DNA of 64,000 nt from the IMG/VR virus record IMGVR_UViG_3300042892_002922, positions 222,846 through 286,845 of that record. One strand, given 5' to 3'. The stretch comes from a virus (Duplodnaviria > Caudoviricetes). The notes below the pieces were generated by a model that did not search any database, was not told where the DNA came from, and saw nothing but the letters and a program-made list of their open reading frames with translations. Positions 4,286-23,534 of this stretch are shown one piece after another; positions within the stretch are counted from its first letter, which is position 1; the number at the start of each line of letters is the position of its first letter. Made by a program: the position numbers and the translations under genes.

Positions 4286-4292
4286 TATTTAT
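4286..4292 (+). promoter_or_regulatory. TATTTAT motif, candidate phage late promoter
   Basis: Intergenic, 16 nt before ATG 4309; same heptamer before several other unit-leading genes. Confidence 0.4.
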
Positions 4293-4308
4293 ATATAAAT
4301 TAGAAAAT

Positions 4309-5796
4309 ATGAGAACAGTATTGATAGGATCAGATTTTATGTACGATAAGGATGGTAATTTAAGACCCATCGAAATAAACACTGCGGTTGGTTGGGATGG
4401 TCCCGAAAAAGTGGAAGACGATGCAGATTGTTTGGATTTAACAAGTTTATATCAATTTGTTGAGGATAATAATTTCCAAACGATACATTATGTTGGTGAT
4501 ATTGGTCCATTACACGTGACATTAATGACACATTATAGCGGAAGTTCTGTTACATATGAATTTCATGGGGTTGGAGCTACTTCCATTACAGTTCCATACA
4601 TAGAAGATACTGAAACGACTTTAATTATTAGGAGTGCATATGACACAACAGCACTAGTGGATGACACATATTGTAAGGATAAAATAGAGTTCATGAATCT
4701 AATTAAAGATTCTTCTTTTGGCTCCCAATTTGCGTACATTGACGAAAATAACACATTGGTGTCAAATATCACATCTATAAATGATAACGGCGAACACCCT
4801 AATTTTATTTTAAAATCTAGATTTCCAGGTTATGACAAGTTAATTTATCCAAAATTTTTTAAAGTTACAACTCAATCTGAATTAGACACTATAATAGCAA
4901 ATAATGTTACAAGTGAGTATTTTTTAATGGAGTACCTATGTAACGTCAATAAACTATGGGAAGGGCATTTAACGGTTATAAGAAGTTTAAACATTTTAGT
5001 CCCACCAAATTTAGAATCAATTCAAATTGGCCAATATACAAAATTGAATCAAAATATGTTACTAGATAATGTGACATATGATTCAATCACATTTGAAGTA
5101 TATTCAGATTTCAAAGAGAGTTATAGTACAAACCCACCTACCGGTTTTCAACCTAAATTATTGAATACTGATATGGTAGAAATGGCAGATGGGACATTAA
5201 AAACTGCATTGGATTTACAAATTGGGGACGTTATTAAAACAATTGAAATACCAAATGAAAAGGGAACTAGTATAGATAGTTACGTATCCTCCGAATTTGG
5301 GCTTACGTACGATACGTTGGTAAGTGATGCAATATATACAACTAATGTCGTAACCAAAAAACAAAAAGTAAACACCTTAACTTTTATAAATGAATTAACA
5401 TTTGAAGATGCTAGTACCTGGGAAGATACTATGGGCTCAAAGTATTTGATAGACAGAGAAGGTGTGGTTATGTTTAAATCATTATGGGGGATATTTCCAG
5501 GAGATGTGGTTATATTATTAGATACTACTGATGATAATATAAATTTTGTAAGAAAAACAGTTACATCAAATATTCAAGTTAAGAGAGTGTTCTCTGGTTG
5601 GTTTATTTCAGTTGATACCGCTATGTTATTTTTAACTAAAACAGCCGGGTCAACCAATAACGAATCATATGTTTCAATTGAACATAACCTTATATCTTGT
5701 CCCAATTGGACATGTACAAACGTTTGCTGGTCCGTCTGTCCATCATGTCCGAAGTATATGTCTTGTCAATCTAATTACTGTTTTCCAGTATGTTAA
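4309..5796 (+). CDS. Circularly permuted ATP-grasp-like domain + Hint domain + 35-aa Cys-rich tail
   Basis: N-terminal GSDFMYDKDGNLRPIEINT, FILKSRFPG, FLMEY; Hint block A-like LNTDMVEMADGTLKTALDLQIGDVI; terminal EHN followed by an 8-Cys peptide. Confidence 0.6.
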   Translation: MRTVLIGSDFMYDKDGNLRPIEINTAVGWDGPEKVEDDADCLDLTSLYQFVEDNNFQTIHYVGDIGPLHVTLMTHYSGSSVTYEFHGVGATSITVPYIEDTETTLIIRSAYDTTALVDDTYCKDKIEFMNLIKDSSFGSQFAYIDENNTLVSNITSINDNGEHPNFILKSRFPGYDKLIYPKFFKVTTQSELDTIIANNVTSEYFLMEYLCNVNKLWEGHLTVIRSLNILVPPNLESIQIGQYTKLNQNMLLDNVTYDSITFEVYSDFKESYSTNPPTGFQPKLLNTDMVEMADGTLKTALDLQIGDVIKTIEIPNEKGTSIDSYVSSEFGLTYDTLVSDAIYTTNVVTKKQKVNTLTFINELTFEDASTWEDTMGSKYLIDREGVVMFKSLWGIFPGDVVILLDTTDDNINFVRKTVTSNIQVKRVFSGWFISVDTAMLFLTKTAGSTNNESYVSIEHNLISCPNWTCTNVCWSVCPSCPKYMSCQSNYCFPVC

Positions 5797-5825: not shown

Positions 5826-5915
5826 ATGGCAACAATTATATCAAATACAGACATCAATACTTTAAACACCACAATTACAACAATAGGTAGTTTAATTGTA
5901 ACAGCAAACAGTTAG
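5826..5915 (+). CDS. 29-aa Thr/Ile/Asn-rich small ORF (MATIISNTDINTLNTTITTIGSLIVTANS)
   Basis: A-rich initiation context (taaataaaaaATG); fills the gap; translated by hand. Confidence 0.4.
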   Translation: MATIISNTDINTLNTTITTIGSLIVTANS

Positions 5916-5938: not shown

Positions 5939-6472
5939 ATGATACATTTCATACCAAATATTCTTACTAAGGATGAGTGTGAATACTTAACGAATCAATT
6001 TGATTTCGAAAGAAAATATCAAATCTCGGTGGATAATGAATATACTGGCACCAATATATCATATGGGTTTGCCCCTTCATTTGCGTTTAATACCTATTTA
6101 AATAAATTAAAATCAAAAGTGTTAGAATATAACAATAATTTTGATGATTTATTCAATGTAAACACATTTGTTAGGGAATATATGAACACCTCAATGTTAA
6201 AAAAACATTTAGATAGAAAAGACATTAGTGTTACTATGTCTATATGTTTAGAATCCACAATAAATAAAGAATGGCCGTTATGTGCGGAAATCGGAAATAA
6301 GGAATATTGTTTCAACACAAATATTGGTGACGGTATTTTATTATTTGATGCGGATAAAATCACACATTGGAGGGAACCCTTAATATGTCTGGAGAAAGAA
6401 AGAGTTGTCCAATTTTTTTTACATTGGAAACCTTCTGATTACGTCGCAAAAAAAACAAAATCATTATTATAA
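5939..6472 (+). CDS. 2OG-Fe(II) oxygenase
   Basis: LKKHLDR (HxD), GDGILF, HWREP, QFFLHW. Confidence 0.75.
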   Translation: MIHFIPNILTKDECEYLTNQFDFERKYQISVDNEYTGTNISYGFAPSFAFNTYLNKLKSKVLEYNNNFDDLFNVNTFVREYMNTSMLKKHLDRKDISVTMSICLESTINKEWPLCAEIGNKEYCFNTNIGDGILLFDADKITHWREPLICLEKERVVQFFLHWKPSDYVAKKTKSLL

Positions 6473-6483
6473 AAAAATAAATT

Positions 6484-7068
6484 ATGCCATTTACATATAC
6501 AATAGAGTCAACCTTTTTAACAAAAGAAGAATGTGATTTAATATTAGATTTTTCATTAAAAGAATTAAAATTAGTACCATCGGAAATTCTTACCAATTAC
6601 ACCGATGGTGGCGACGTTAATACCGATATTAGAAAATCAAATCAAGTATTTTACCCCTATTATAAAAAATTTCCATTTTTATTAGAAAAAATGAGTAAAT
6701 TATTAAATCAACATATTTTTGTTAAAGGGTTCGATTTAGATTTTAAAGAAAGTCAATTTCAGTTTACTGAGTATCATCCAGGCGGACATTTTGGCTGGCA
6801 TAGAGATGCTCATGGAAAAAAAATAACGGATTATGACAGGTATTGTTCATTAGTGATACAACTAAATGATGAGTATGGAGAGGGTGATTTACAAATAAAA
6901 GATGATCAGAATGGGACCCTAACAGTTGAAAAGGGTACAGGAAATTTGATATTATTTTTATCAAATATTGAACATAGAGTAGTGCCAGTAAAAAGTGGGA
7001 TTAGATATACACTAGTTAATTGGGTGAAATTAAAACAAAAAAAAGATTATAAAAAAACACTTTTATAG
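6484..7068 (+). CDS. 2OG-Fe(II) oxygenase (P4H/PKHD-like)
   Basis: FGWHRD, SLVIQL, GDLQI, HRVVPVKSGIRYTLVNW. Confidence 0.85.
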   Translation: MPFTYTIESTFLTKEECDLILDFSLKELKLVPSEILTNYTDGGDVNTDIRKSNQVFYPYYKKFPFLLEKMSKLLNQHIFVKGFDLDFKESQFQFTEYHPGGHFGWHRDAHGKKITDYDRYCSLVIQLNDEYGEGDLQIKDDQNGTLTVEKGTGNLILFLSNIEHRVVPVKSGIRYTLVNWVKLKQKKDYKKTLL

Positions 7069-7069
7069 T

Positions 7070-7387
7070 ATGAAAATAAATTTTAAAGAAATATTAAATG
7101 CGTGGTATAATGTTATAAATCACACACCAGAACAAAAGGAATTAGCAGATAAAAGATTCGCAATATGTTTAGAATGCCCCTCTAAAATAGAAATTTTAAA
7201 ATACAAGAAATGGCTTTTTAAATGTAAAGAATGTGGTTGCCCTTTAGGCGCAAAAGTTTACACTGAAACAACATATCTTACTAAAGACAAATCTTGTCCA
7301 CTTGATAAATGGAAAGAAGTTGAAATGGAATTTATGAGTAAACATAGTGACACGATTAAATATAAAACTAAAAAAACATTTCTTTAG
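7070..7387 (+). CDS. Small Cys-rich, probably metal-binding protein
   Basis: CLECP...CKECGCPL...CPLDKW. Confidence 0.65.
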   Translation: MKINFKEILNAWYNVINHTPEQKELADKRFAICLECPSKIEILKYKKWLFKCKECGCPLGAKVYTETTYLTKDKSCPLDKWKEVEMEFMSKHSDTIKYKTKKTFL

Positions 7388-7389
7388 TT

Positions 7390-8079
7390 ATGGGTTATTT
7401 AATAAACGATGACCTTTTATGGGTGATCACCCCTAAATGTGCTAGCGACTCAATAGAAACTGCATTATTAAACTCAAGTTTAAATTTAAAAAAATATAGC
7501 GAACACTTCGAACAACATACCCATATGCATATACCACTAAACGAGTGCTTAACTAAGTTTGGTAAAAAAGAAACAATATGTATCACTAGAGATTGGTTTG
7601 AAAAATGGTTAAGTTCATTAAATTTTATTTGGGATTATATAGAATTATATAGTGAATATGAACCAGTATGTAAATGGGAGGACATCAATAATAATGTTAT
7701 TTATGAGATATTTGATAGCGAATTTGTAAATAAACTTTACTCATTAAATCATACCTCTAATGAAGAATGTTTTTTGAAATTATTAAAAAGGAACACCGAA
7801 GATATTATAAACGTACCCAAAGAAATTTATGGAATAATAATAACTCTAATATCTGAACGCTATTGGAAAAGTAATGTAAAATGCACATATGAATTTGATA
7901 TTAAAAAATTAGACGATTTTGTCAATTTCATTGAAAATAGGTTTGGTGAAAAATTAATAATAGAAAAGAAAAACGTATCTACAAAAAGACCAAATAAATT
8001 AATAGTAAATAATGAATTGAAATCTTTTGTTTGGGAAAAATTTGAAAAAATATTTGAAAAAAGAAATCAATTAATTTAA
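7390..8079 (+). CDS. Sulfotransferase-fold-like protein
   Basis: VITPKCASDSI resembles the 5'-PSB loop; downstream ITRDWFEKWLS resembles the 3'-PB R..S motif. Confidence 0.5.
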   Translation: MGYLINDDLLWVITPKCASDSIETALLNSSLNLKKYSEHFEQHTHMHIPLNECLTKFGKKETICITRDWFEKWLSSLNFIWDYIELYSEYEPVCKWEDINNNVIYEIFDSEFVNKLYSLNHTSNEECFLKLLKRNTEDIINVPKEIYGIIITLISERYWKSNVKCTYEFDIKKLDDFVNFIENRFGEKLIIEKKNVSTKRPNKLIVNNELKSFVWEKFEKIFEKRNQLI

Positions 8080-8080
8080 T

Positions 8081-8749
8081 ATGGCAACTATTTGGACATT
8101 TGGGGATTCATTTACTTCTGGAGACGGGTGTGTAGAAAACCTAAGAATTAGAGACGGTGATTTTAGATATTATAACGAATATAAAAAACTAGGCAGTGAT
8201 ATATGGCCTAATTTATTAGGTAAAACTTTAGGATATGACGTAAAAAATCTAGGAAAAAGCGGTGCAAGTAATGACTATATTTTAGATTCTATTATTGATA
8301 ATTTTAACATGATAGAACCAAATGATGTGGTGATAATTGAAAAAACATTTTACCAAAGATTTGATATACCTAAATCAACGGGTGATGGGTTTCAAACAAT
8401 TTATGCTGAAGGACTTTATCAACTTTCTATTGATTTAAAAATGGAAAGATATTTTTGTGAAGATAAATTAGAAATTGAAACGGTATTAAATTATGGTGTT
8501 TTATTTTCCGACAATAAATTATTTAAAGAAAGACAAGATAAACGATTTGAATTTATACAAGCACAATTAAATAATAAAACAGATAAAATATTAATATGGG
8601 ATGTTTTAGATTTTTTAGACGGTAAAATTGAAACAATAGGTCAACACACTGAGGGTAATATAAAAGATTATCATTTTAGTTTTAATGGTCATAAAAGATT
8701 TAGCGAATTTCTATATAAAAAATTATATATTAAACCCTCATTAGTTTAA
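8081..8749 (+). CDS. SGNH/GDSL-like hydrolase or acyltransferase
   Basis: FGDSFT, NLGKSGASND, DYHFSFNGH. Confidence 0.7.
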   Translation: MATIWTFGDSFTSGDGCVENLRIRDGDFRYYNEYKKLGSDIWPNLLGKTLGYDVKNLGKSGASNDYILDSIIDNFNMIEPNDVVIIEKTFYQRFDIPKSTGDGFQTIYAEGLYQLSIDLKMERYFCEDKLEIETVLNYGVLFSDNKLFKERQDKRFEFIQAQLNNKTDKILIWDVLDFLDGKIETIGQHTEGNIKDYHFSFNGHKRFSEFLYKKLYIKPSLV

Positions 8750-9481
8750 ATGTTAGTCGATAAAAAATTTATTTTTATAAGTTTACCAAGATGCGCATCA
8801 ACATCATTTATGATTAGGTGTGTTAAAAACAAAATACCAATAGAGCATTTCAACTCAAACCATGATAATCAGTTGATTAAAATCAATGAATGGGAAAAAA
8901 TGGGTAATGAAGAATTGGCGGATAGATTAGTACATGCGCACGAACCATTACATATGTTACAAGAAAAATTTGGGACGAACAACCAAATTATTTCAATAAA
9001 ACGAAATAAGTACGATAGATTTTTATCTTTATGGAAACACATCATAGACGAATTACACAGAATTAACAAACTTGATATTGCTGACATCTTTTCAAAATTA
9101 ACAACTAATGATCTGTTTGTTAATATTAAACCAAATGACATTTATAATTCGGAAAATAGAATTAAAGTTATTGATAATTTTTTATCTAGGTTAGAAATTT
9201 CAAAAGAAGAATCTTACACTAAAAATATGTTAGATATATTGTTTATGCCAGTAGTTGAACTTACAAATAACGACCCAAATATTATCTGGTTTGATATTAA
9301 CAGTTTGAGAGATTTAGAAAATTGGGTGTCAAAAAAACTAAATAGAGATTTTAAAATGGAAAAAATAAATTCAAGTAAACATTTTAATTCAGTAATGGAG
9401 AACGATGATAATTTTAAACAGAAATATGATAATCTTTATAAAGAATTTGACCAAAGAAAAACAACTAAAACATTATTGTAA
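8750..9481 (+). CDS. Sulfotransferase family 2-like protein
   Basis: FISLPRCASTS; RNKYDRFLSLW (R.P..R..S-like). Confidence 0.6.
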   Translation: MLVDKKFIFISLPRCASTSFMIRCVKNKIPIEHFNSNHDNQLIKINEWEKMGNEELADRLVHAHEPLHMLQEKFGTNNQIISIKRNKYDRFLSLWKHIIDELHRINKLDIADIFSKLTTNDLFVNIKPNDIYNSENRIKVIDNFLSRLEISKEESYTKNMLDILFMPVVELTNNDPNIIWFDINSLRDLENWVSKKLNRDFKMEKINSSKHFNSVMENDDNFKQKYDNLYKEFDQRKTTKTLL

Positions 9482-10650
9482 TGGAAATTCAATTTTGGTA
9501 TAGCGATATTTTACCAAATACAAATATTAGAAATTCAATCGAAAAAATAGATAGTGACATCTTATTTAAAAATATCCACACCGATAAGGTAGATGTTACA
9601 AAATTAAATTTTTTATTTTTTTTGTTAGAAACTGAATGGACTAATTCCGATATCCCAAACATAGCGTATACTCATTCTAGTGAATTTATTGAATTACTAA
9701 TTAAGTTACAATCTGAAAATTTCTATTTTATGTGTAATAATTCTGGGGAAGCCGAACTTTGGGTGGATAATTTATCCTTGAATTTTTTTAATTTGTTAAA
9801 AAAAAATAAAATTGATTTTAACAGATTAATAATTGTAAATAACGATTCATCTAAAATTGGTATAGGTAAAACAAAATATGGGGATTTTATATTAAACACC
9901 TGTTTTTTTCCTAATTTCTTTTTATCTACCTATGAGCATTTAAAGTCATATGTAACTGAATTAAACCCTAACACCATACCTGATAAAAAATTCTTATGTT
10001 TAAATAGAAGAATGGGTTATGAAAAATATAAATTAATCGAGAGGTTATATCATATGGGGTTGTTAAATGACACCAGATTTTCTTGGGTAAAAAATAGCAC
10101 GAATAAAAATCTGTTAAATAAAGAATTACTTAATGAATTAAACATAGATGTTGATAACTTTAACCCTATTCAGTTAGAAGATGATGTAATGTATGGTGCT
10201 GATTTAGTTATGGAAAAGTATCTTTACACCATAAACCCCAAATGGTATTATAAAAGTAAAGTTAATATTATATTGGAAACAATGCTATACCCAAATTCAA
10301 TTCATCTGACAGAAAAAACCTGGAAAGCAATTTATTTAGGTGTCCCGTTTGTTATATATTCACCATCTAAACACTATCTTAAAACCTTAAGGGATATGGG
10401 ATTCAAGACATTTAATTCTGTGATTAATGAGGATTATGATGAGATGCTAGGTAAAGATAAAATAACACAAGTTATAAAAAGCGCTGAAGAACTGGCTAGT
10501 ATCTATGACACCCCCAAAGTATTAGATATATGTAGATTTAACCAAGAATTATATTTTAATTTTCAACACAGAAAAAAAATATATAATGAGTTTTTTTTAA
10601 ATAAAATTTGTGATGTTAAAAACTTAACAATTCCTAAAACATTAATTTAA
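9481..10650 (+). CDS. Conserved phage hypothetical protein, possibly glycosyltransferase-like
   Basis: FLCLNRR, ET...HLTEKTWKAI, PF, LRDMGFKTF, EDYD pattern; function not established. Confidence 0.5.
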   Translation: MEIQFWYSDILPNTNIRNSIEKIDSDILFKNIHTDKVDVTKLNFLFFLLETEWTNSDIPNIAYTHSSEFIELLIKLQSENFYFMCNNSGEAELWVDNLSLNFFNLLKKNKIDFNRLIIVNNDSSKIGIGKTKYGDFILNTCFFPNFFLSTYEHLKSYVTELNPNTIPDKKFLCLNRRMGYEKYKLIERLYHMGLLNDTRFSWVKNSTNKNLLNKELLNELNIDVDNFNPIQLEDDVMYGADLVMEKYLYTINPKWYYKSKVNIILETMLYPNSIHLTEKTWKAIYLGVPFVIYSPSKHYLKTLRDMGFKTFNSVINEDYDEMLGKDKITQVIKSAEELASIYDTPKVLDICRFNQELYFNFQHRKKIYNEFFLNKICDVKNLTIPKTLI

Positions 10651-11700
10651 ATGGGTAATAAAATTGATTTAAAAAATTATACGTGTAGTGTGCCATTTAC
10701 ATCATTAGAAATACATAACAATGTTTGTTTTGTGTGCTGTCCATCCTGGTTACCAAACAAAGTAGAACTTAGTGAAATTCCATTAAAAGATGTTTATAAT
10801 AGCGAACCAATTATTGATATAAGAAACTCGATATTAGATGGTTCATTTAGATATTGTAGTCAAGAGCTTTGTCCTTATTTAAGTAAATTAGTGAAGTATG
10901 GTGCGGAATCTGGGCCAGTCACTTTAAAATCAAATTCAAATGTTAATAGCCCTATTGTAAAAAATAACGCACCAGATTATTTGATGATGAATTTTGATAG
11001 AACATGTAACTACAAATGTCCATCATGTAGAGTTGATTTAATAGTTGAAAATAGTGAGGGTATAAAACGTGTAGAAAAAACAATAGAGGAGATTGATAAT
11101 CACTACTCGAAATATGTTAAAACCCTATATATTACTGGATCAGGGGATCCGTTTGTTTCTGTCGGATTCAGAAATTATCTAAGAAATTTTAACCCTAAAA
11201 AATACCCAAACTTAAATTCCATACACCTACACACAAATGCGTCTATGTGGAATAAAGAAATGTGGGATAGTATGCCAAACATACACGGATATGTCCACTC
11301 TTGTGAAATTAGCATCGACGCTGGTACAAAAGACACCTATGAAAATAAAACCAGGTTGGGTGGTAAATGGGATAATTTAATTGATAATTTAAAATTCATA
11401 AGCACTCTACCAATTTCAGTTAAAACATCATTTGTGGTTCAAGATTCCAATTACATGGAAATGGGTATTTTTTACAACTTAATGTACTCAATATTTGGTA
11501 AAAGAGTAAATGTGTTTTTTGGTAAGATAACTAATTGGGGGACATTTTCAGAAGGTGAATTTAAATTAAAACAAGTATGGGATACGGAACATCCAGAACA
11601 TGAGTTATTTAAAAAAGAGTTTAATAAAGTATGGAAAAATGAAAACCTTTTTCATAATTTATATGAGTTTATTGACAACACAAATAAAACTTTAATATAG
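10651..11700 (+). CDS. Radical SAM protein, paralog of 1592-2713
   Basis: CNYKCPSC, ITGSGDPF, EISIDAGTKDTYENKTRL shared with 1592-2713. Confidence 0.85.
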   Translation: MGNKIDLKNYTCSVPFTSLEIHNNVCFVCCPSWLPNKVELSEIPLKDVYNSEPIIDIRNSILDGSFRYCSQELCPYLSKLVKYGAESGPVTLKSNSNVNSPIVKNNAPDYLMMNFDRTCNYKCPSCRVDLIVENSEGIKRVEKTIEEIDNHYSKYVKTLYITGSGDPFVSVGFRNYLRNFNPKKYPNLNSIHLHTNASMWNKEMWDSMPNIHGYVHSCEISIDAGTKDTYENKTRLGGKWDNLIDNLKFISTLPISVKTSFVVQDSNYMEMGIFYNLMYSIFGKRVNVFFGKITNWGTFSEGEFKLKQVWDTEHPEHELFKKEFNKVWKNENLFHNLYEFIDNTNKTLI

Positions 11701-12261
11701 ATGAGAATTTTAATACTATCACATACAAGATGTGGTTCTACCACATTATGTAAATGGATATCAAAAGAATTGAATTTTGAAGTAGATTATGATCATTACG
11801 ATGCTAACACATTTAATTCAATTTTCATTAAAAATAATATAATAAAAAAAATTGTTATCGAAGAATACAATCCACCAAATGAAGTTATTGAAAAATTTGA
11901 TAAAGTTATTTGTTTAAGTAGGGAAAATAATATTGACAGTGCCATAAGTTTTATTAATGCTGATAACAAAAGCAGGTGGCACGACATATATGAAATAACA
12001 AATGAGTGGATTGAAGATAATAAAAATAAAATAATAGAAACTGTTTACAAATATGAACAATTAAAAACCTTATTAAAAAATAAAGATTTATTTCAAATAA
12101 CGTATGAAAATATGTATATTAATAAAATAGACGTTAATAGAGTTATTAGTTATTTAAACATTGAAAACCCAAAACATTTGGATATGCTTGATTATGATAA
12201 AAAATATAGAAAAGACACATATACTTTAACACATGATTTTAAGAGAAAAAATATCATTTAG
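11701..12261 (+). CDS. Sulfotransferase-fold-like protein
   Basis: ILSHTRCGSTTL, LSREN, ITYE. Confidence 0.55.
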   Translation: MRILILSHTRCGSTTLCKWISKELNFEVDYDHYDANTFNSIFIKNNIIKKIVIEEYNPPNEVIEKFDKVICLSRENNIDSAISFINADNKSRWHDIYEITNEWIEDNKNKIIETVYKYEQLKTLLKNKDLFQITYENMYINKIDVNRVISYLNIENPKHLDMLDYDKKYRKDTYTLTHDFKRKNII

Positions 12262-12763
12262 TAAAGATGAGTGTGATTACATAATAAATTTATCCAAAGA
12301 GTTGGATGAACTTAAACCATTTGGTTATGATGACAATGTTAATAAAGAAAAAATAACAATTAGATATTTTGTTTGGGTTATCAATAGAAACAATAAAACC
12401 CAATGGATATTTGATAAAATTCAAACGTATTTTATAAATAAAACTAATATAAAGATAAAAAAAGAATTAGATAAAATATATATACACAAATATGACACCG
12501 GCCAACAATTTGAAAAACATGCTGACACATATTATAAAACACAAATACACAATGTAGGGGTATGTTTAAACAATGATTATGATGGAGGTGAATTTGTTTT
12601 ATATAATCCAGAAGAACAATTACCAAAAGAAACGGGTAACATATATACTTTCCCTAGTCAAAGAATACATGAAGTAAAAAAAATAATAAAGGGTGAAAGG
12701 TGGAGCATTATTGGATTTTTACATATTGATAATTTAGATTTCCCTAAAAAATCACTAATATGA
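12233..12763 (+). CDS. 2OG-Fe(II) oxygenase
   Basis: EKHAD, CLNNDYDGGEF, HEVKKIIKGERWS. Confidence 0.85.
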   Translation: MILREKISFSKDECDYIINLSKELDELKPFGYDDNVNKEKITIRYFVWVINRNNKTQWIFDKIQTYFINKTNIKIKKELDKIYIHKYDTGQQFEKHADTYYKTQIHNVGVCLNNDYDGGEFVLYNPEEQLPKETGNIYTFPSQRIHEVKKIIKGERWSIIGFLHIDNLDFPKKSLI

Positions 12764-13317
12764 AAATTGGAATAACAGGACATTCTAACGGAATTGGAAA
12801 TGACATTTATTCAAATTTAATAAAAGAATATGATGTTATAGGATTTAGTAGAAGTAATGGTTTTGATATTAAAAATACGGATAAAATTATAGAACAATTG
12901 GATGATTGTGATATTTTTATAAACAACGCTTACGAAGGAAACTATCAAACAATATTATTTGAATTAATTTTTGATAAATGGAAATTTTTACCAAAAACAA
13001 TTATTAATATGAATAGCAGTTGTGTGTATCATTCATCCGATTGGTCGCCAGAATATGCAAATAATAAAAAAGAGTTAAAAGAAGTATCTTTAAATGCGAT
13101 TAGAAATAATAAAAATAAAAAAGTTAGGGTCATAAATTTATATCCATCCACCTTATCAACTCATATGGGGTTTGAAAGTTTAAATAAATTAGATACTGAA
13201 AATCTTGCAAAAATTATAAATTGGTTAATAAAACAACCACAAGAAATAGAAATTAGAGAGATGAGTATATATTGTACAACATTGGAGAAAGAATTTAAAA
13301 CAAATAAATTAATATGA
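12760..13317 (+). CDS. Short-chain dehydrogenase/reductase-like protein
   Basis: ITGHSNGIG Rossmann motif, INNA, Y..NKK. Confidence 0.7.
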   Translation: MKIGITGHSNGIGNDIYSNLIKEYDVIGFSRSNGFDIKNTDKIIEQLDDCDIFINNAYEGNYQTILFELIFDKWKFLPKTIINMNSSCVYHSSDWSPEYANNKKELKEVSLNAIRNNKNKKVRVINLYPSTLSTHMGFESLNKLDTENLAKIINWLIKQPQEIEIREMSIYCTTLEKEFKTNKLI

Positions 13318-19667: not shown

Positions 19668-22600
19668 ATGAATATATTTGACGCACACATATCGGGATCA
19701 TTATCCGTATCAAGTTCAGCCGAAATTTCGGGTGATTTAAAAGTTTTAGGAACAATTAGTGGTTCCTTTAGTGGTGATGGCTCTAATATCACAAACATCC
19801 CAGCGGGTGGTGTTGTTGGACTTAATTTAACACGAATAGCTGACGGTGCATCAACAGCATCAATTTCAAATACAGATGGTTTAAGAATTAATACAAATTC
19901 AGAAATTACTGGTTCATTAATTATAACCGGTGATTTAATTATAAGTGGAACATCTTTTAATGCCGCGACCTCAGGTACATCTGGTACATCAGGAACCTCA
20001 GGTACATCTGGAACCTCAGGGTCTTCAGGTTCAAGTGGAACATCAGGTACTAGTGGAACTAGCGGAACCTCAGGAAGTTCAGGATCAAGTGGAACATCGG
20101 GATCAAGTGGAAGTTCTGGTTCTAGCGGAACGTCAGGTACGAGTGGTTCTTCAGGTACATCTGGCACATCAGGAACCTCAGGTTCATCGGGAAGTTCGGG
20201 TACGTCTGGAACCAGCGGAAGTTCTGGGTCATCAGGTACAAGTGGAACATCTGGTTCATCCGGAAGTTCTGGTTCTAGTGGAACATCGGGATCAAGCGGT
20301 ACCTCAGGCACTAGTGGAACCTCAGGATCAAATGGTAGTTCGGGCACGAGTGGTTCTTCGGGTTCATCTGGAAGTTCGGGTACGTCAGGTACTAGTGGAA
20401 GTAGCGGTTCTTCAGGAACATCTGGTTCTTCAGGAACATCAGGTTCAAGTGGTAGTTCTGGTACTAGTGGAAGTAGTGGTTCTTCAGGAACCGCTGGAAC
20501 TTCAGGAACCTCAGGTTCTAGTGGTAGTTCTGGAACATCAGGTTCTAGTGGATCTAGCGGAACCGCTGGTACAAGTGGTACATCGGGATCTTCTGGTTCT
20601 AACGGGTCGTCAGGTACTTCAGGAACAAGCGGAACATCTGGTTCATCAGGAACTTCAGGTTCATCAGGTTCTAGTGGAACGAGCGGTAGTTCTGGTTCAT
20701 CAGGAACATCAGGTTCTAACGGGTCGTCAGGTACTTCAGGAACAAGCGGAACATCTGGTTCATCAGGAACTTCAGGTTCATCAGGTTCTAGTGGAACATC
20801 TGGGTCTTCAGGGTCAAGCGGTACATCAGGTTCAAGCGGAAGTTCAGGAACATCCGGAAGTTCAGGGTCTAGTGGTACAGCGGGGACATCAGGAACCTCA
20901 GGTTCTAGTGGATCTAGTGGATCTAGCGGAACCGTAACAATGAGCGGAACACAAGACAATGGTGTTCTAACACTTAATGGTTCCTCACCAAACGTAACTG
21001 CGGAAAATAATTTAAGATTTGATGGTTCACTTTTAACCGTTGTTGGTAACGAAACAATATCTGGTTCCTTAATTGTGACAAACAATTTTACAGTATTAGG
21101 TTCATCCTCAATAACATACGTAACATCATCTCAATTAAGAGTTGAAGACAATATTATCACAGTAAACACTGCTAGCCCTGGATCTAGATTTGGTGGACTA
21201 GAAGTTCATGATTCAGGATCGGTTGGTATTGCTACTGGTTCAATTCTTTGGGATTCTGTTAACAATAGATGGATTTATCAAAACTCAAGTGAGGCGGGTT
21301 ATGGTGGCGGTGTATTATTGTCAGGTCCTAGAAGTTCTGGTTCACTAGGTAGTGAATTAACATTAACTAGTGGTAGAGTTGCAAAGTCAGCGGGCGGAGA
21401 CCACTTAAATGATTCAAATATAACAGACAACGGTACAACCGTTTCGATAAATTCAAATACAGAAATCACTGGTTCATTAATTGTTACTGGTGGTAATAAA
21501 TTAGTTGTAAATGCTACTGGTGGTGATGAAGGTGGTGAAATTTTATTAGGGAAAGCGTTAACTAATACAACACTTGTTGGTGAGGGAGTTACAGTAGATA
21601 TTTGGCAAAATAGATTAAGATTTTTTGAACAAGGTGGAACTGCGAGAGGTGCATATATTGATATCTCAAGTTTAGCGGCAGGTGTTGGTACCAACCTGGT
21701 TGGTGCTGGTTCATCAGGTACTTCTGGAACTAGTGGTACCTCTGGCACATCGGGTTCTAGTGGAACATCAGGATCTAATGGTTCGTCTGGTACGTCAGGT
21801 TCATCAGGAACAAGTGGTACAAGTGGTAGTTCAGGATCTAATGGTTCATCTGGCACGTCAGGGTCTTCAGGGTCTAGCGGAACATCGGGATCTAATGGTT
21901 CATCTGGCACGTCAGGAACATCGGGTTCTAATGGTTCTAGTGGAACATCAGGTTCTTCAGGTTCTAGTGGAACATCTGGTTCATCCGGAAGTTCTGGTTC
22001 AAGTGGGACCTCAGGTTCTTCAGGTAGTTCAGGTTCATCCGGAACAAGTGGAAGTTCGGGAACATCAGGTTCTAATGGTTCTAGTGGAACATCAGGTTCT
22101 TCAGGTAGTTCAGGGTCAAGCGGAACGTCTGGGTCTTCAGGTTCTAGTGGTACTTCGGGTACTTCAGGAAGCTCAGGAACAAGTGGGTCTTCAGGTTCTT
22201 CTGGATCTAGTGGAACATCGGGTTCTAACGGATCTAGTGGTACGTCGGGTTCATCAGGTTCTAGCGGTTCTAGTGGAACTTCAGGTTCTTCTGGTTCTAG
22301 CGGAAGTTCAGGAACAAGTGGATCTTCAGGGTCTAGTGGTTCAAGTGGAACCAGTGGTAGTTCGGGGAGTTCTGGTTCAAGTGGAACATCTGGGTCTTCA
22401 GGAAGTTCTGGTTCTAGCGGGTCTTCTGGTACGTCAGGTACTTCTTTTGCTAATAGTTTTAATATAAATCAAAATTTAGGAACAAGTAACTCACCAACAT
22501 TTGGTGGTTTAACAATTACAGGTGGTGGTTCAGTTAGCACAGTATTAACAGGTGCTAACGTTGGTGACTTATTGTATGCATCAATTGCTGATAACGATTA

Positions 22601-23534
22601 TTTCAGATTAAGAGTTGGTGGTACAGCAACAAATGCCGGTTATGTTGAAATAGCAACTTCCGATGATGGTACCGAACCAATATATGTTAGACAATACACG
22701 GGTGTGTTTAGTAGTATAACTAGGACTGCAACATTACTAGATGGTAGTGGTAACACATCATTTCCAGGTACAATTACAGCCCCAACATTCTCAGGAGCAC
22801 TATCCGGAAACGCAACCACTGCAACCACTGCGGGCGCTTTAACATCAATGAACATTTCACAGTTCACAAATAATAGTGCTTACATCACAGGTATATCTTT
22901 TGCAAACGTTTCATCAAAACCAACAACAATAAGTGGATATGGAATTACAGATGCAATTACAACAGCTAACATTGGCTCTCAGTCCGTATCATTTGCAACA
23001 AGTGCTACAAGCGCAACTACTGCGGGTAGTGCACCAAACGCTAGTAATTTAAACGCATCTTATGGTGTATCAACGGGTAATGGAAACGGATTAAAATTTT
23101 GGGGAGGTTCCGACACGTATAAAATTCATATGGGTAGTTCATCTGAATATTATTATGGCCCTGTTACAGATTACTCCATAAAGTGTAATATAGATAGTAA
23201 TAGTTCGACAAGAGGTTTCACTTGGGGACAAAGTGGAGTAACACCAATTGCCGCGTTAAACGTAGGAAATGGAAATATGCAAATCGCAGGTACATTCACA
23301 TCAGGTGGAAGTATATTACCATTAAGTAATGGTACGTTAAACTTAGGTTCATCTGGAGCAAGATGGAACACATTATTTACATCGGATTTATCGTTATCAA
23401 ACGGTATTGGTGATTACACAATTGTTGAGGGTGAGGATGATTTGTTCTTATATAATAATAAAAGAAATAAAGTATATAAATTTATGTTGCAAGAAGTAAA
23501 ACCAGAAGATGCAACACCAAAGCGACCAGAATAA
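19668..23534 (+). CDS. Tail-fibre-like virion protein with two long Ser-Gly-Thr/Ser triplet repeat blocks
   Basis: G-x-x repeats, beta-rich spacers, phage-fibre-like C terminus (LGSSGARWNTLFTSDL...YTIVEGEDDLFL); next to LamG and Gly-rich genes. Confidence 0.7.
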   Translation: MNIFDAHISGSLSVSSSAEISGDLKVLGTISGSFSGDGSNITNIPAGGVVGLNLTRIADGASTASISNTDGLRINTNSEITGSLIITGDLIISGTSFNAATSGTSGTSGTSGTSGTSGSSGSSGTSGTSGTSGTSGSSGSSGTSGSSGSSGSSGTSGTSGSSGTSGTSGTSGSSGSSGTSGTSGSSGSSGTSGTSGSSGSSGSSGTSGSSGTSGTSGTSGSNGSSGTSGSSGSSGSSGTSGTSGSSGSSGTSGSSGTSGSSGSSGTSGSSGSSGTAGTSGTSGSSGSSGTSGSSGSSGTAGTSGTSGSSGSNGSSGTSGTSGTSGSSGTSGSSGSSGTSGSSGSSGTSGSNGSSGTSGTSGTSGSSGTSGSSGSSGTSGSSGSSGTSGSSGSSGTSGSSGSSGTAGTSGTSGSSGSSGSSGTVTMSGTQDNGVLTLNGSSPNVTAENNLRFDGSLLTVVGNETISGSLIVTNNFTVLGSSSITYVTSSQLRVEDNIITVNTASPGSRFGGLEVHDSGSVGIATGSILWDSVNNRWIYQNSSEAGYGGGVLLSGPRSSGSLGSELTLTSGRVAKSAGGDHLNDSNITDNGTTVSINSNTEITGSLIVTGGNKLVVNATGGDEGGEILLGKALTNTTLVGEGVTVDIWQNRLRFFEQGGTARGAYIDISSLAAGVGTNLVGAGSSGTSGTSGTSGTSGSSGTSGSNGSSGTSGSSGTSGTSGSSGSNGSSGTSGSSGSSGTSGSNGSSGTSGTSGSNGSSGTSGSSGSSGTSGSSGSSGSSGTSGSSGSSGSSGTSGSSGTSGSNGSSGTSGSSGSSGSSGTSGSSGSSGTSGTSGSSGTSGSSGSSGSSGTSGSNGSSGTSGSSGSSGSSGTSGSSGSSGSSGTSGSSGSSGSSGTSGSSGSSGSSGTSGSSGSSGSSGSSGTSGTSFANSFNINQNLGTSNSPTFGGLTITGGGSVSTVLTGANVGDLLYASIADNDYFRLRVGGTATNAGYVEIATSDDGTEPIYVRQYTGVFSSITRTATLLDGSGNTSFPGTITAPTFSGALSGNATTATTAGALTSMNISQFTNNSAYITGISFANVSSKPTTISGYGITDAITTANIGSQSVSFATSATSATTAGSAPNASNLNASYGVSTGNGNGLKFWGGSDTYKIHMGSSSEYYYGPVTDYSIKCNIDSNSSTRGFTWGQSGVTPIAALNVGNGNMQIAGTFTSGGSILPLSNGTLNLGSSGARWNTLFTSDLSLSNGIGDYTIVEGEDDLFLYNNKRNKVYKFMLQEVKPEDATPKRPE
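19968..20933 (+). repeat. Coding tandem repeat block 1, (S-G-T/S)n, about 322 codons
   Basis: Directly visible 9-nt periodicity with degenerate synonymous codons. Confidence 0.95.
20595..20797 (+). repeat. 86-bp exact direct repeat (20595-20680 and 20712-20797)
   Basis: ggttctaacgggtcgtcagg...ttctagtggaac occurs twice, offset 117 nt. Confidence 0.85.
21708..22445 (+). repeat. Coding tandem repeat block 2, (S-G-T/S, N-G-S)n, about 246 codons
   Basis: Directly visible. Confidence 0.95.

Follow-up and report, generated by a model that had tools for sequence, protein, structure and literature searches.

Hint domains that serve autoproteolysis, not splicing, have been described in the pretoxin-HINT modules (PF07591) of bacterial polymorphic toxins and in A-type bacterial intein-like (BIL) domains; they end in His-Asn, and a variable cargo follows directly on the C-terminal side. 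In the borosins (OphMA type) the modifying enzyme carries the core peptide as its own C terminus, in the graspetides an ATP-grasp ligase acts on a ribosomal peptide whose core is hypervariable within a fixed framework, and in LysW/LysX-ArgX systems an ATP-grasp enzyme receives the flexible C-terminal tail of a zinc-ribbon protein. Circularly permuted ligases activate the C-terminal carboxylate of a peptide as an acyl-phosphate, which is then attacked by an amine; eukaryotic glutathione synthetase is such a circular permutation of the ATP-grasp fold. Here we describe P0001, a gene on a 64,000-nucleotide stretch (hereafter the window) of the viral record IMGVR_UViG_3300042892_002922 (Duplodnaviria; Caudoviricetes), with which each of these systems shares one feature, whilst none has the combination.

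P0001 occupies positions 4309-5796 of the window (+ strand) as an open reading frame (ORF) with a 495-residue product. Its translation, its homologues and an AlphaFold2 model show a three-part protein, in which a predicted permuted ATP-grasp ligase is followed by a Hint domain expected to cleave at its C terminus and by a Cys-rich cargo, and which probably processes itself. An initial annotation, made by reading the DNA, had proposed this arrangement, and its coordinates for the ORF, the His-Asn site and the tail were all correct. A word-indexed search of a 5.8-billion-protein set retrieved 767 homologues at E ≤ 0.001, and an exhaustive search gave 257 clusters (representatives at 50% identity), with E below 1e-30 for 91. 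The three-part layout is common to these homologues, in numbers that, at the level of sequence, put the observation far beyond chance, and the language-model neighbours of P0001 are nearly all viral. No significant match was found in Pfam, PHROGs or the sequences of the PDB; chance-level matches to Adeno_hexon_C (E 0.011), phrog_36795 (E 0.083), Ataxin-1 AXH (E 0.67) and ExpZ (E 0.033) were taken as noise. CheckV rates the 80.6-kb IMG/VR record that contains the window as 20% complete, which suggests that it comes from a very large uncultured phage (a marine giant phage); the sole cultured relative found for the window is a weak match to the 440-kb Salicola phage SCTP-2.

Conservation was assessed on 99 aligned full-length family members, down to 22% identity. 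Across these, E22, N24, R108, D118, P181, R225 and N460 are invariant, and D9, T25, D100, K169, H459 and five tail Cys are kept in at least 90%; T25, P164, N165 and K169 are listed as ligase-domain invariants beyond this set. The AlphaFold2 model of the whole protein, built on the same alignment, reached a predicted local distance difference test (pLDDT) score of 87.6 and a predicted template modelling (pTM) score of 0.84, the tail being the only uncertain part.

The central part of the protein, residues 283-460 (5155-5688, + strand), is predicted to adopt a Hint fold without an N-terminal nucleophile. VIA matched more than 20 inteins, BIL2 and Hedgehog 1at0 over model residues 279-460 with Z scores from 14.8 to 12, and the top fold matches, which include a BIL domain, were the TvoVMA intein (14.8), NpuDnaB (14.6), BIL2 (14.4) and 1at0 (14.0); Foldseek gave E 3.5e-7 with a template modelling score, by target, of about 0.7. 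Alignments to Hedgehog 1at0 and to the RadA intein span model residues 283-460, in agreement with the Hint boundaries drawn beforehand from the sequence. Several inteins place their residue 1 at Lys283 (or at Pro282), with the alignments ending at 458-460, and in none of the columns 281-284 does the family conserve a Cys, Ser or Thr, as the initial annotation had noted for the missing N-terminal Cys. The +1 residue, Leu461, starts at 5689, and its counterpart in homologues is F, Y, L, G, S, A, V, D, E or others with no preference for a nucleophile. With no nucleophile at residue 1 and a freely varying +1 residue, splicing and N-terminal thioester chemistry are therefore excluded; this bears out the earlier expectation that the protein does not splice, and we ruled out a true intein.

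The predicted scissile site is His459-Asn460 (CAT AAC, 5683-5688, + strand). The pair is present in 116/121 close homologues, the remaining five having Gln-Asn, Leu-Asn or Ala-Asn, and stands at the aligned position in 99/111 full-length representatives; a check of its conservation found the Asn invariant and, in the wide set, the His kept in at least 90%. The penultimate His is thus missing from about 4% of close homologues, near the ~5% of functional inteins that have another residue there (PMC4031507); cutting of the C-terminal junction by Asn cyclisation is possible without the earlier splicing steps (PMC4031507). The only Hint residues kept family-wide are Asn460, G398 and H459, and the domain architecture switches exactly after His-Asn. 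Retention of this pair amid an otherwise unconserved Hint domain points to a function. Because N460 is kept and no N-terminal or +1 nucleophile is conserved, C-terminal cleavage would be the only possible outcome: the sole reaction left to the domain appears to be succinimide formation at Asn460, which would cut the Asn460-Leu461 bond and free the cargo. The equivalent of intein block B (Thr-x-x-His) is, by sequence, T-W-E-D, with no conserved His.

The cargo behind this site (5689-5793, + strand) is a tail of 35 residues with eight Cys, at tail positions 4, 9, 13, 17, 20, 26, 31 and 35, a single Lys (K482, 5752-5754) and no acidic residue; its length, Cys content and start at 5689 had been read correctly before. 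That the tail might be hypervariable, another suggestion of the initial annotation, is borne out by mean pairwise identities in the close family of 0.72 for the ligase, 0.65 for the Hint domain and 0.28 for tail positions other than the shared Cys. The Cys framework, by contrast, is fixed, and the number of Cys is even in 180/181 tails, mostly eight or six. Lys is present in all 184 tails counted, where 24-50 would be expected to be without it, and exactly one Lys is found in 144 of them (64 expected); in distant clades it often lies at the end of a Gly-rich arm, and even mini-cargos of 5-7 residues have one. Asp and Glu are both absent from 65/205 tails, including that of P0001. A Pfam search with five isolated tails matched no known Cys-rich peptide family.

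What follows His-Asn was classified in 111 full-length cluster representatives. A short Cys-rich tail is found in 65, a stretch of 81-300 residues in 18 and one of more than 300 residues in eight; nine have a Cys peptide of about 30 residues followed by a second, canonical Hint domain, six a Cys-rich segment followed by an S74-like autoprotease, and about five only a few residues (seven in the clearest case). The double-Hint layout, in which the first Hint ends in His-Asn, a Cys peptide of 27-35 residues follows, and a canonical Hint running from Cys to His-Asn is closed by Lys-Lys, is seen in P0179, P0194, P0211, P0232, P0244 and P0248. The second Hint of P0179 starts with Cys, ends in His-Asn plus Lys-Lys and scores 41 bits against Intein_splicing; such a domain may have arisen as a BIL-like insertion, or it may serve to activate the C terminus of the peptide as a thioester. 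It occupies the site at which single-Hint relatives have a Gly-rich linker and Lys. In the S74-like class the autoprotease motif, a sub-threshold match to S74, directly follows a Lys, after which the protease would cut. The junction after Asn is thus a true module boundary. Since some lineages bound the peptide on both sides by self-cutting domains, excision of the cargo is favoured, and this double bounding is the strongest indirect evidence for it.

These data also bear on an alternative in which nothing is released: the Hint domain would serve as a structural spacer with His-Asn kept for folding, the Cys-rich end would be a permanent zinc-binding or disulfide module, and the ligase would act on a small molecule or in the surrounding glycan pathway. 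A glycan and tailoring cluster (a carbamoyltransferase, glycosyltransferases, an adenosine 5'-phosphosulfate (APS) kinase and sugar dehydrogenases) does surround the gene, the assisting residues of intein blocks B and F are missing, and eight Cys could make two Zn(Cys)4 sites. However, a spacer gives no account of Asn460 as the only family-wide Hint residue besides G398 and H459, nor of the free swapping of the part after Asn between unrelated cargos and other autoproteases, and the six-Cys tails (38/205) do not fit pairs of Zn(Cys)4 sites. We consider this explanation improbable.

Residues 1-278 (4309-5142, + strand) are predicted to form a minimal, circularly permuted ATP-grasp carboxylate-amine ligase, on the basis of a domain model, VIA, Foldseek and invariant residues. 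Folded alone, the N-terminal domain reached a pLDDT of 93.8, and all of its top 17 VIA matches were ATP-grasp enzymes (Z 5-8). The top nine were all permuted ligases aligned over model residues 1-278 (Z 8.2-6.9), including GSS22 (8.2), 3k1t (7.8), YgiC (7.7) and GspS (7.5), with 3n6x and Cp1B also among the permuted matches, whereas canonical ATP-grasp enzymes (TTLL, ArgX/LysX, RimK, Ddl and PurD) align only with residues 55-279. Foldseek matched the domain to yeast glutathione synthetase (E 7e-6, probability 1.0). Sequence identity to the permuted ligases is 9-14%. The fold that had been suggested from motifs is therefore predicted with high confidence by AlphaFold2, VIA and Foldseek alike.

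The permutation places a Mg-binding motif, D9-x12-E22-x-N24, at the extreme N terminus (4333-4380, + strand). In a profile of the N-terminal domain, residues 9-32 align with the E...E-M-N-T segment at positions 274-297 of biotin and pyruvate carboxylases, an alignment (E 0.65-1.4) that is meaningless alone and is read at the level of the motif only. The motif thus seems to have moved from the C-terminal part of the fold to the start of the chain, and this alignment, together with the different spans matched by permuted and canonical enzymes, upholds the permuted order that the initial annotation had deduced. That annotation had also described a D-x6-7-EIN motif: the motif is real, but the conserved acid is D9, 12 residues upstream, and not an Asp 6-7 residues upstream. 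The K and ME motifs were as described, at K169 (F-I-L-K) and M207-E208. With the acidic-x(11-12)-E-x-N motif and the ATP-binding Lys present, and D9, E22, N24 and K169 invariant or nearly so, modelling points to a permuted ligase of the glutathione synthetase or glutathionylspermidine synthetase kind with intact Mg- and ATP-binding residues, which is probably active.

The ligase gene is accompanied by a gene for a small protein, P0272 (7070-7387, + strand), of 105 residues, zinc-ribbon-like and ending in K-T-F-L. We searched 68 related viral loci with the proteins that neighbour P0001 in the window and found a homologue of P0272 in all 68. The partner gene usually adjoins the ligase gene: in relatives of less than 60% identity it is the next gene downstream (at 107-254 nt) or the next one upstream, and it is also adjacent in three more distant loci (L003, L073 and L074), which include a relative whose cargo measures 224 residues and, in a T4-like genome, one of 28% identity. 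The partner measures ~90-105 residues across loci, with W12, R29, C36, C52, C55, C57, K62, C76 and W81 invariant. Its six conserved Cys are arranged much as in a zinc ribbon, and a linker that varies precedes the conserved C-terminal K-[TSN]-[LI]-[LIF]. Its library matches are faint ones to DUF6171 and phrog_13558 only. By their gene neighbourhoods, the ligase and the zinc-ribbon protein form an obligate pair.

We predicted the complex of P0001 with P0272. Its score, 0.40 against 0.00 for the best of three controls, falls under the verdict 'weak support'; the mark is reached by 58/80 solved complexes and 2/110 mismatched pairs, and at 0.60 or under stand only seven of those 80, together with both mismatches that passed. 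Confident contacts join the last nine residues of P0272 to P0001 residues 2-4, 94-98, R108, 112, 114-117, 230 and 232. Because of homology to canonical ATP-grasp enzymes, this contact site would correspond to the cleft that the substrate-side subdomain forms with the Mg-binding strands.

The C-terminal motif of the partner recurs on its neighbours. Eleven consecutive genes of the window (5939-13317, + strand) end in K/N-[TSNKQ]-[LIF]-[LIV]; by family matches they encode 2-oxoglutarate (2OG) oxygenases, sulfotransferase-like proteins, an SGNH protein, a radical S-adenosylmethionine (SAM) protein and others. In every locus examined, the tag K-[TSN]-[LI]-[LIF] closes the partner and 1-13 neighbouring genes, leaning to L-F in L074 and to L-V in L073. 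Among unique ORFs, 220/749 of those co-directional with the ligase gene and within 6 kb of it are tagged, compared with 9/122 beyond 6 kb and 7/324 in reverse frames; in the rest of the window (14.1-64 kb) the tag closes one of 62 ORFs. The tagged classes are prolyl-hydroxylase-type and Asp/Asn-hydroxylase-type 2OG oxygenases, sulfotransferase-like proteins, SGNH and radical SAM proteins and a Trp halogenase. These are peptide-modifying classes, and a 3'-phosphoadenosine 5'-phosphosulfate (PAPS) kinase is encoded near the tagged sulfotransferase-like proteins. As far as C-terminal sequences indicate, a network of tagged proteins surrounds the ligase gene, and the ligase domain would be the receiver of the tags. 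The initial annotation had linked the ligase to these neighbours; conservation of the tag across the family sustains that link, whereas the placement of the tag in the ligase cleft is suggested weakly by the complex prediction.

One interpretation, to which we give somewhat less than an even chance, resembles the biosynthesis of RiPPs (peptides that are made by ribosomes and modified post-translationally): a leader that is itself an enzyme would recruit tailoring enzymes, and the peptide would be decorated and then released by the protein itself. The ligase domain would act as a receptor for the C-terminal tags, which would bring hydroxylases, sulfotransferases, halogenases and similar enzymes to the still-tethered cargo, and these would decorate it. 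The ligase would form one amide bond on the cargo, most likely at the single Lys or at the C-terminal carboxylate. Asn cyclisation would come last and release a disulfide-rich peptide, so that the 'leader', itself an enzyme, would need no protease for its removal. The RiPP-like interpretation is supported by the two predicted folds, by conservation of the catalytic residues D9, E22, N24, K169, R225, H459 and N460 down to 22% identity, by the intein-like frequency of the penultimate His, by a cargo that starts right after His-Asn in all architectures and evolves like a peptide, by the constant presence of the partner, by the enrichment of the tag near the ligase gene and, weakly, by the complex prediction. 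It is the best account of which enzymes are tagged, of hypervariability around the Cys framework and of the boundaries set by two autoproteases.

Several observations weigh against it. The ATP-grasp Z score of ~8 lies within a range that, as the tool warns, may reflect a common arrangement, although we consider this moderate value to be offset by the uniform list of matches and the complete set of catalytic motifs in the model. The assisting residues of intein blocks F and B are not conserved, and for this reason the rate of cleavage could be low. The complex score is weak, was built on author-made alignments and may echo solved ArgX-LysW complexes. If the tag does lie in the substrate cleft beside the invariant R108 and D118, it resembles a substrate more than a docking peg, which would favour conjugation (below), and the invariant substrate-side residues would fit a conserved tag better than a hypervariable cargo. 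The acid-poor tails exclude graspetide-type cross-links as the bond made by the ligase. Finally, some relatives carry cargos of 150-1240 residues, which are not peptide natural products; among the largest are BACON-domain proteins next to a tail-sheath gene. One such relative, of 1667 residues (L004, 150-5153), consists of ligase, Hint and 1242 residues with BACON domains, and lies directly upstream of the tail-sheath gene (L004, 5583-7562), an adjacency that hints at the processing of a virion protein by some members of the family.

The same cleft-bound tag is central to an explanation by protein conjugation, of the pupylation or LysW/ArgX type, which we hold to be possible but rather doubtful. 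Here the ligase would phosphorylate tagged proteins, first of all the zinc-ribbon partner, at their C-terminal alpha-carboxylate, and the carboxylate would be joined to the Lys of the cargo or to its freed alpha-amine; Hint cleavage would then free the conjugate, each molecule being a single-turnover donor of its own tail. All of the ligase's nearest structural relatives act on a peptide (gamma-Glu-Cys, glutathione), whose C-terminal carboxylate they activate and link to an amine, and a small zinc-ribbon protein with a flexible C-terminal tail beside an ATP-grasp enzyme is the arrangement of LysW and ArgX, the latter of which is, with LysX, among the fold matches. The tag is strictly C-terminal and, in the weakly supported complex (0.40 versus 0.00), is predicted in the cleft beside R108. 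The substrate-side residues of the ligase are invariant despite the hypervariable cargo, and a Lys occurs in every tail, exactly one in 144/184, is often placed at the end of a Gly-rich arm in distant clades and is kept by the 5-7-residue mini-cargos. Conjugation thus best accounts for the invariant substrate side, the universal Lys, the C-terminal tag in the cleft and the chemistry of the relatives. It leaves without reason, however, the peptide-tailoring classes of the tagged proteins and the capping of 1 to 13 enzymes with a cysteine knot; every conjugate would require a ligase molecule of its own; and, unlike the acidic LysW tail, the tag is basic and hydrophobic. The RiPP-like and the conjugation explanations are about equally good, and cleavage, the choice of the amide bond and the decision between these two are matters of inference. 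A still more doubtful form of conjugation, in our judgement, is an ATP-driven protein-tagging system of phages that works without an E1/E2/E3-like cascade, in which the tag would be recognised, the cargo grafted onto the target and the ligase-Hint part would cut itself off.

The cargo could also be its own acceptor. The ligase would activate its C-terminal carboxylate and close it either head-to-tail, on the alpha-amine that Hint cleavage frees, or on the side chain of the Lys, to give a cyclic cystine-knotted peptide, and the tags would only mimic the C terminus of the substrate in order to dock. Enzymes of the glutathione synthetase type activate the carboxylate of a C-terminal Cys, and in the clade of P0001 Cys is the last cargo residue (59/184 tails). 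The double-Hint relatives would provide an alpha-amine and a C-terminal thioester on one ~30-residue peptide, the topology of engineered intein cyclisation. Cyclotides have the size of such a cargo, about 30-40 residues with six to eight Cys. Yet a ring from Lys to C terminus cannot be general when Lys is last or second-last in many clades (38/184 tails), large cargos are not accounted for, chemistry of the native chemical ligation type is unavailable because the +1 residue is not Cys, and the complex prediction puts the tag of the partner, not the cargo, in the cleft. We regard macrocyclisation as quite unlikely.

How the locus departs from each described system can now be specified. Pretoxin-HINT is approached by a sub-threshold match of the distant homologue P0196 (E 3.4e-4); P0001 itself had no PF07591 match in Pfam, its cargo falls in no toxin family there and its neighbours are tailoring enzymes. 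Unlike pretoxin-HINT and BIL proteins, P0001 lacks an N-terminal Cys/Ser, any domain for trafficking or secretion and a recognisable toxin, and it has no immunity gene; instead it combines an upstream ATP-grasp ligase, a phage setting and, in most relatives, a cysteine cargo of ~35 residues. Permuted ligases (eukaryotic glutathione synthetase, GspS, YgiC, 3k1t and 3n6x) are the best matches to the whole N-terminal domain and share its E-x-N strand at the start, but the P0001 domain is ~280 residues long against 370-590, has no Pfam match and is fused to a Hint domain. LysX and ArgX, both solved with LysW, resemble the predicted pair in that the ATP-grasp enzyme receives a zinc-ribbon tail, here the last nine residues, whereas the ligase of P0001 is permuted, carries Hint and cargo and is not accompanied by genes of amino-acid biosynthesis. 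The tail here is K-T-L-L (K-T-F-L in P0272) and not the acidic EDWGE of LysW, and it is found on many full-size enzymes as well; in this non-acidic tail, shared with enzymes, the partner departs from a LysW-type carrier.

Amongst RiPP systems, P0001 resembles the borosins in that its cargo is the C terminus of a putative modifying enzyme, and the graspetides in its ATP-grasp ligase and hypervariable core. It differs from RiPP fusions in that release would be brought about by a built-in Hint domain and not by a separate protease, that the ligase is not of the MdnB/MdnC type, and that the tailoring enzymes share a C-terminal tag instead of recognising a leader. A graspetide was rejected because the tails lack the acidic residues needed for omega-ester or omega-amide cross-links (the tail here has no Asp or Glu); the Thr/Ser/Lys pattern of graspetide cores is also missing, and the graspetide ligase PsnB was reached by Foldseek only at E 0.81. 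Neither the fusion nor the partner nor the tag is described in the libraries and literature that we searched, and a tblastn search with P0001, the 28%-identical relative P0174 and P0272 against 50,697 GenBank phage records found nothing. A survey of jumbo phages describes other ATP-grasp enzymes and a cyanophage cluster of carbamoyltransferase and 2OG genes, and not this fusion (PMC7824862). The kinds of domain involved are already known, as is, in principle, the Hint-mediated release of a C-terminal cargo; there is a substantial chance that the whole system is of a new kind.

The surroundings of the gene hold further features. The sequence TATATATAAATT at 4290-4301 (+ strand) resembles a T4-type late promoter box and lies only 8 nt before the ATG, a gap too short for a ribosome-binding site. 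Upstream of P0001, 2719-4284 (+ strand) encodes an APS kinase, a 126-residue nucleotidyltransferase-like protein and a 71-residue DUF2061 membrane protein, each present in 30-35 of the 68 loci; the latter two genes mostly sit just upstream of the ligase gene, and the remaining loci yielded no homologue of either. PAPS supply for the sulfotransferase-like tagged enzymes is plausible. Farther upstream, a radical SAM protein (1592-2713, + strand) ends in N-H-L-L and may be a twelfth tagged protein; N-H-L-I endings were counted as tags in other loci, and its radical SAM paralogue at 10651-11700 has K-T-L-I as its last residues. The ligase gene is separated from the first tagged gene by an ORF of 29 residues rich in Thr, Ile and Asn (5826-5915, + strand), for which tblastn found no homologue in the 68 loci; ORFs of 30-45 residues with no obvious mutual similarity flank the ligase homologue in L003, L004, L073 and L074. 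The window also holds glycosyltransferase genes and a gene for a collagen-like tail-fibre protein of 1288 residues (19668-23534, + strand), about 6 kb downstream of several prolyl-hydroxylase-type 2OG oxygenases; this fibre is a possible alternative substrate of the 2OG oxygenases.

P0001 thus belongs to a family of hundreds of clusters that has no Pfam or PHROG family, comes with an obligate partner and is surrounded by unrelated enzymes linked by a four-residue tag. If the peptide is released and decorated, the family would represent a new route to ribosomal peptide natural products, with a self-removing leader that recruits the tailoring enzymes, and abundant uncultured aquatic phages would be a source of conotoxin-like hypervariable cysteine peptides. 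If the cargo is instead grafted onto the tagged proteins, it would be a new protein-conjugation system and a tool for site-specific C-terminal ligation; protein tagging of this kind, if true, would amount to a natural device for post-translational protein-protein ligation with a swappable payload, be it a Cys-knot peptide or a whole domain. These findings also give the many 'orphan' 2OG oxygenases in the genomes of marine phages a testable meaning.

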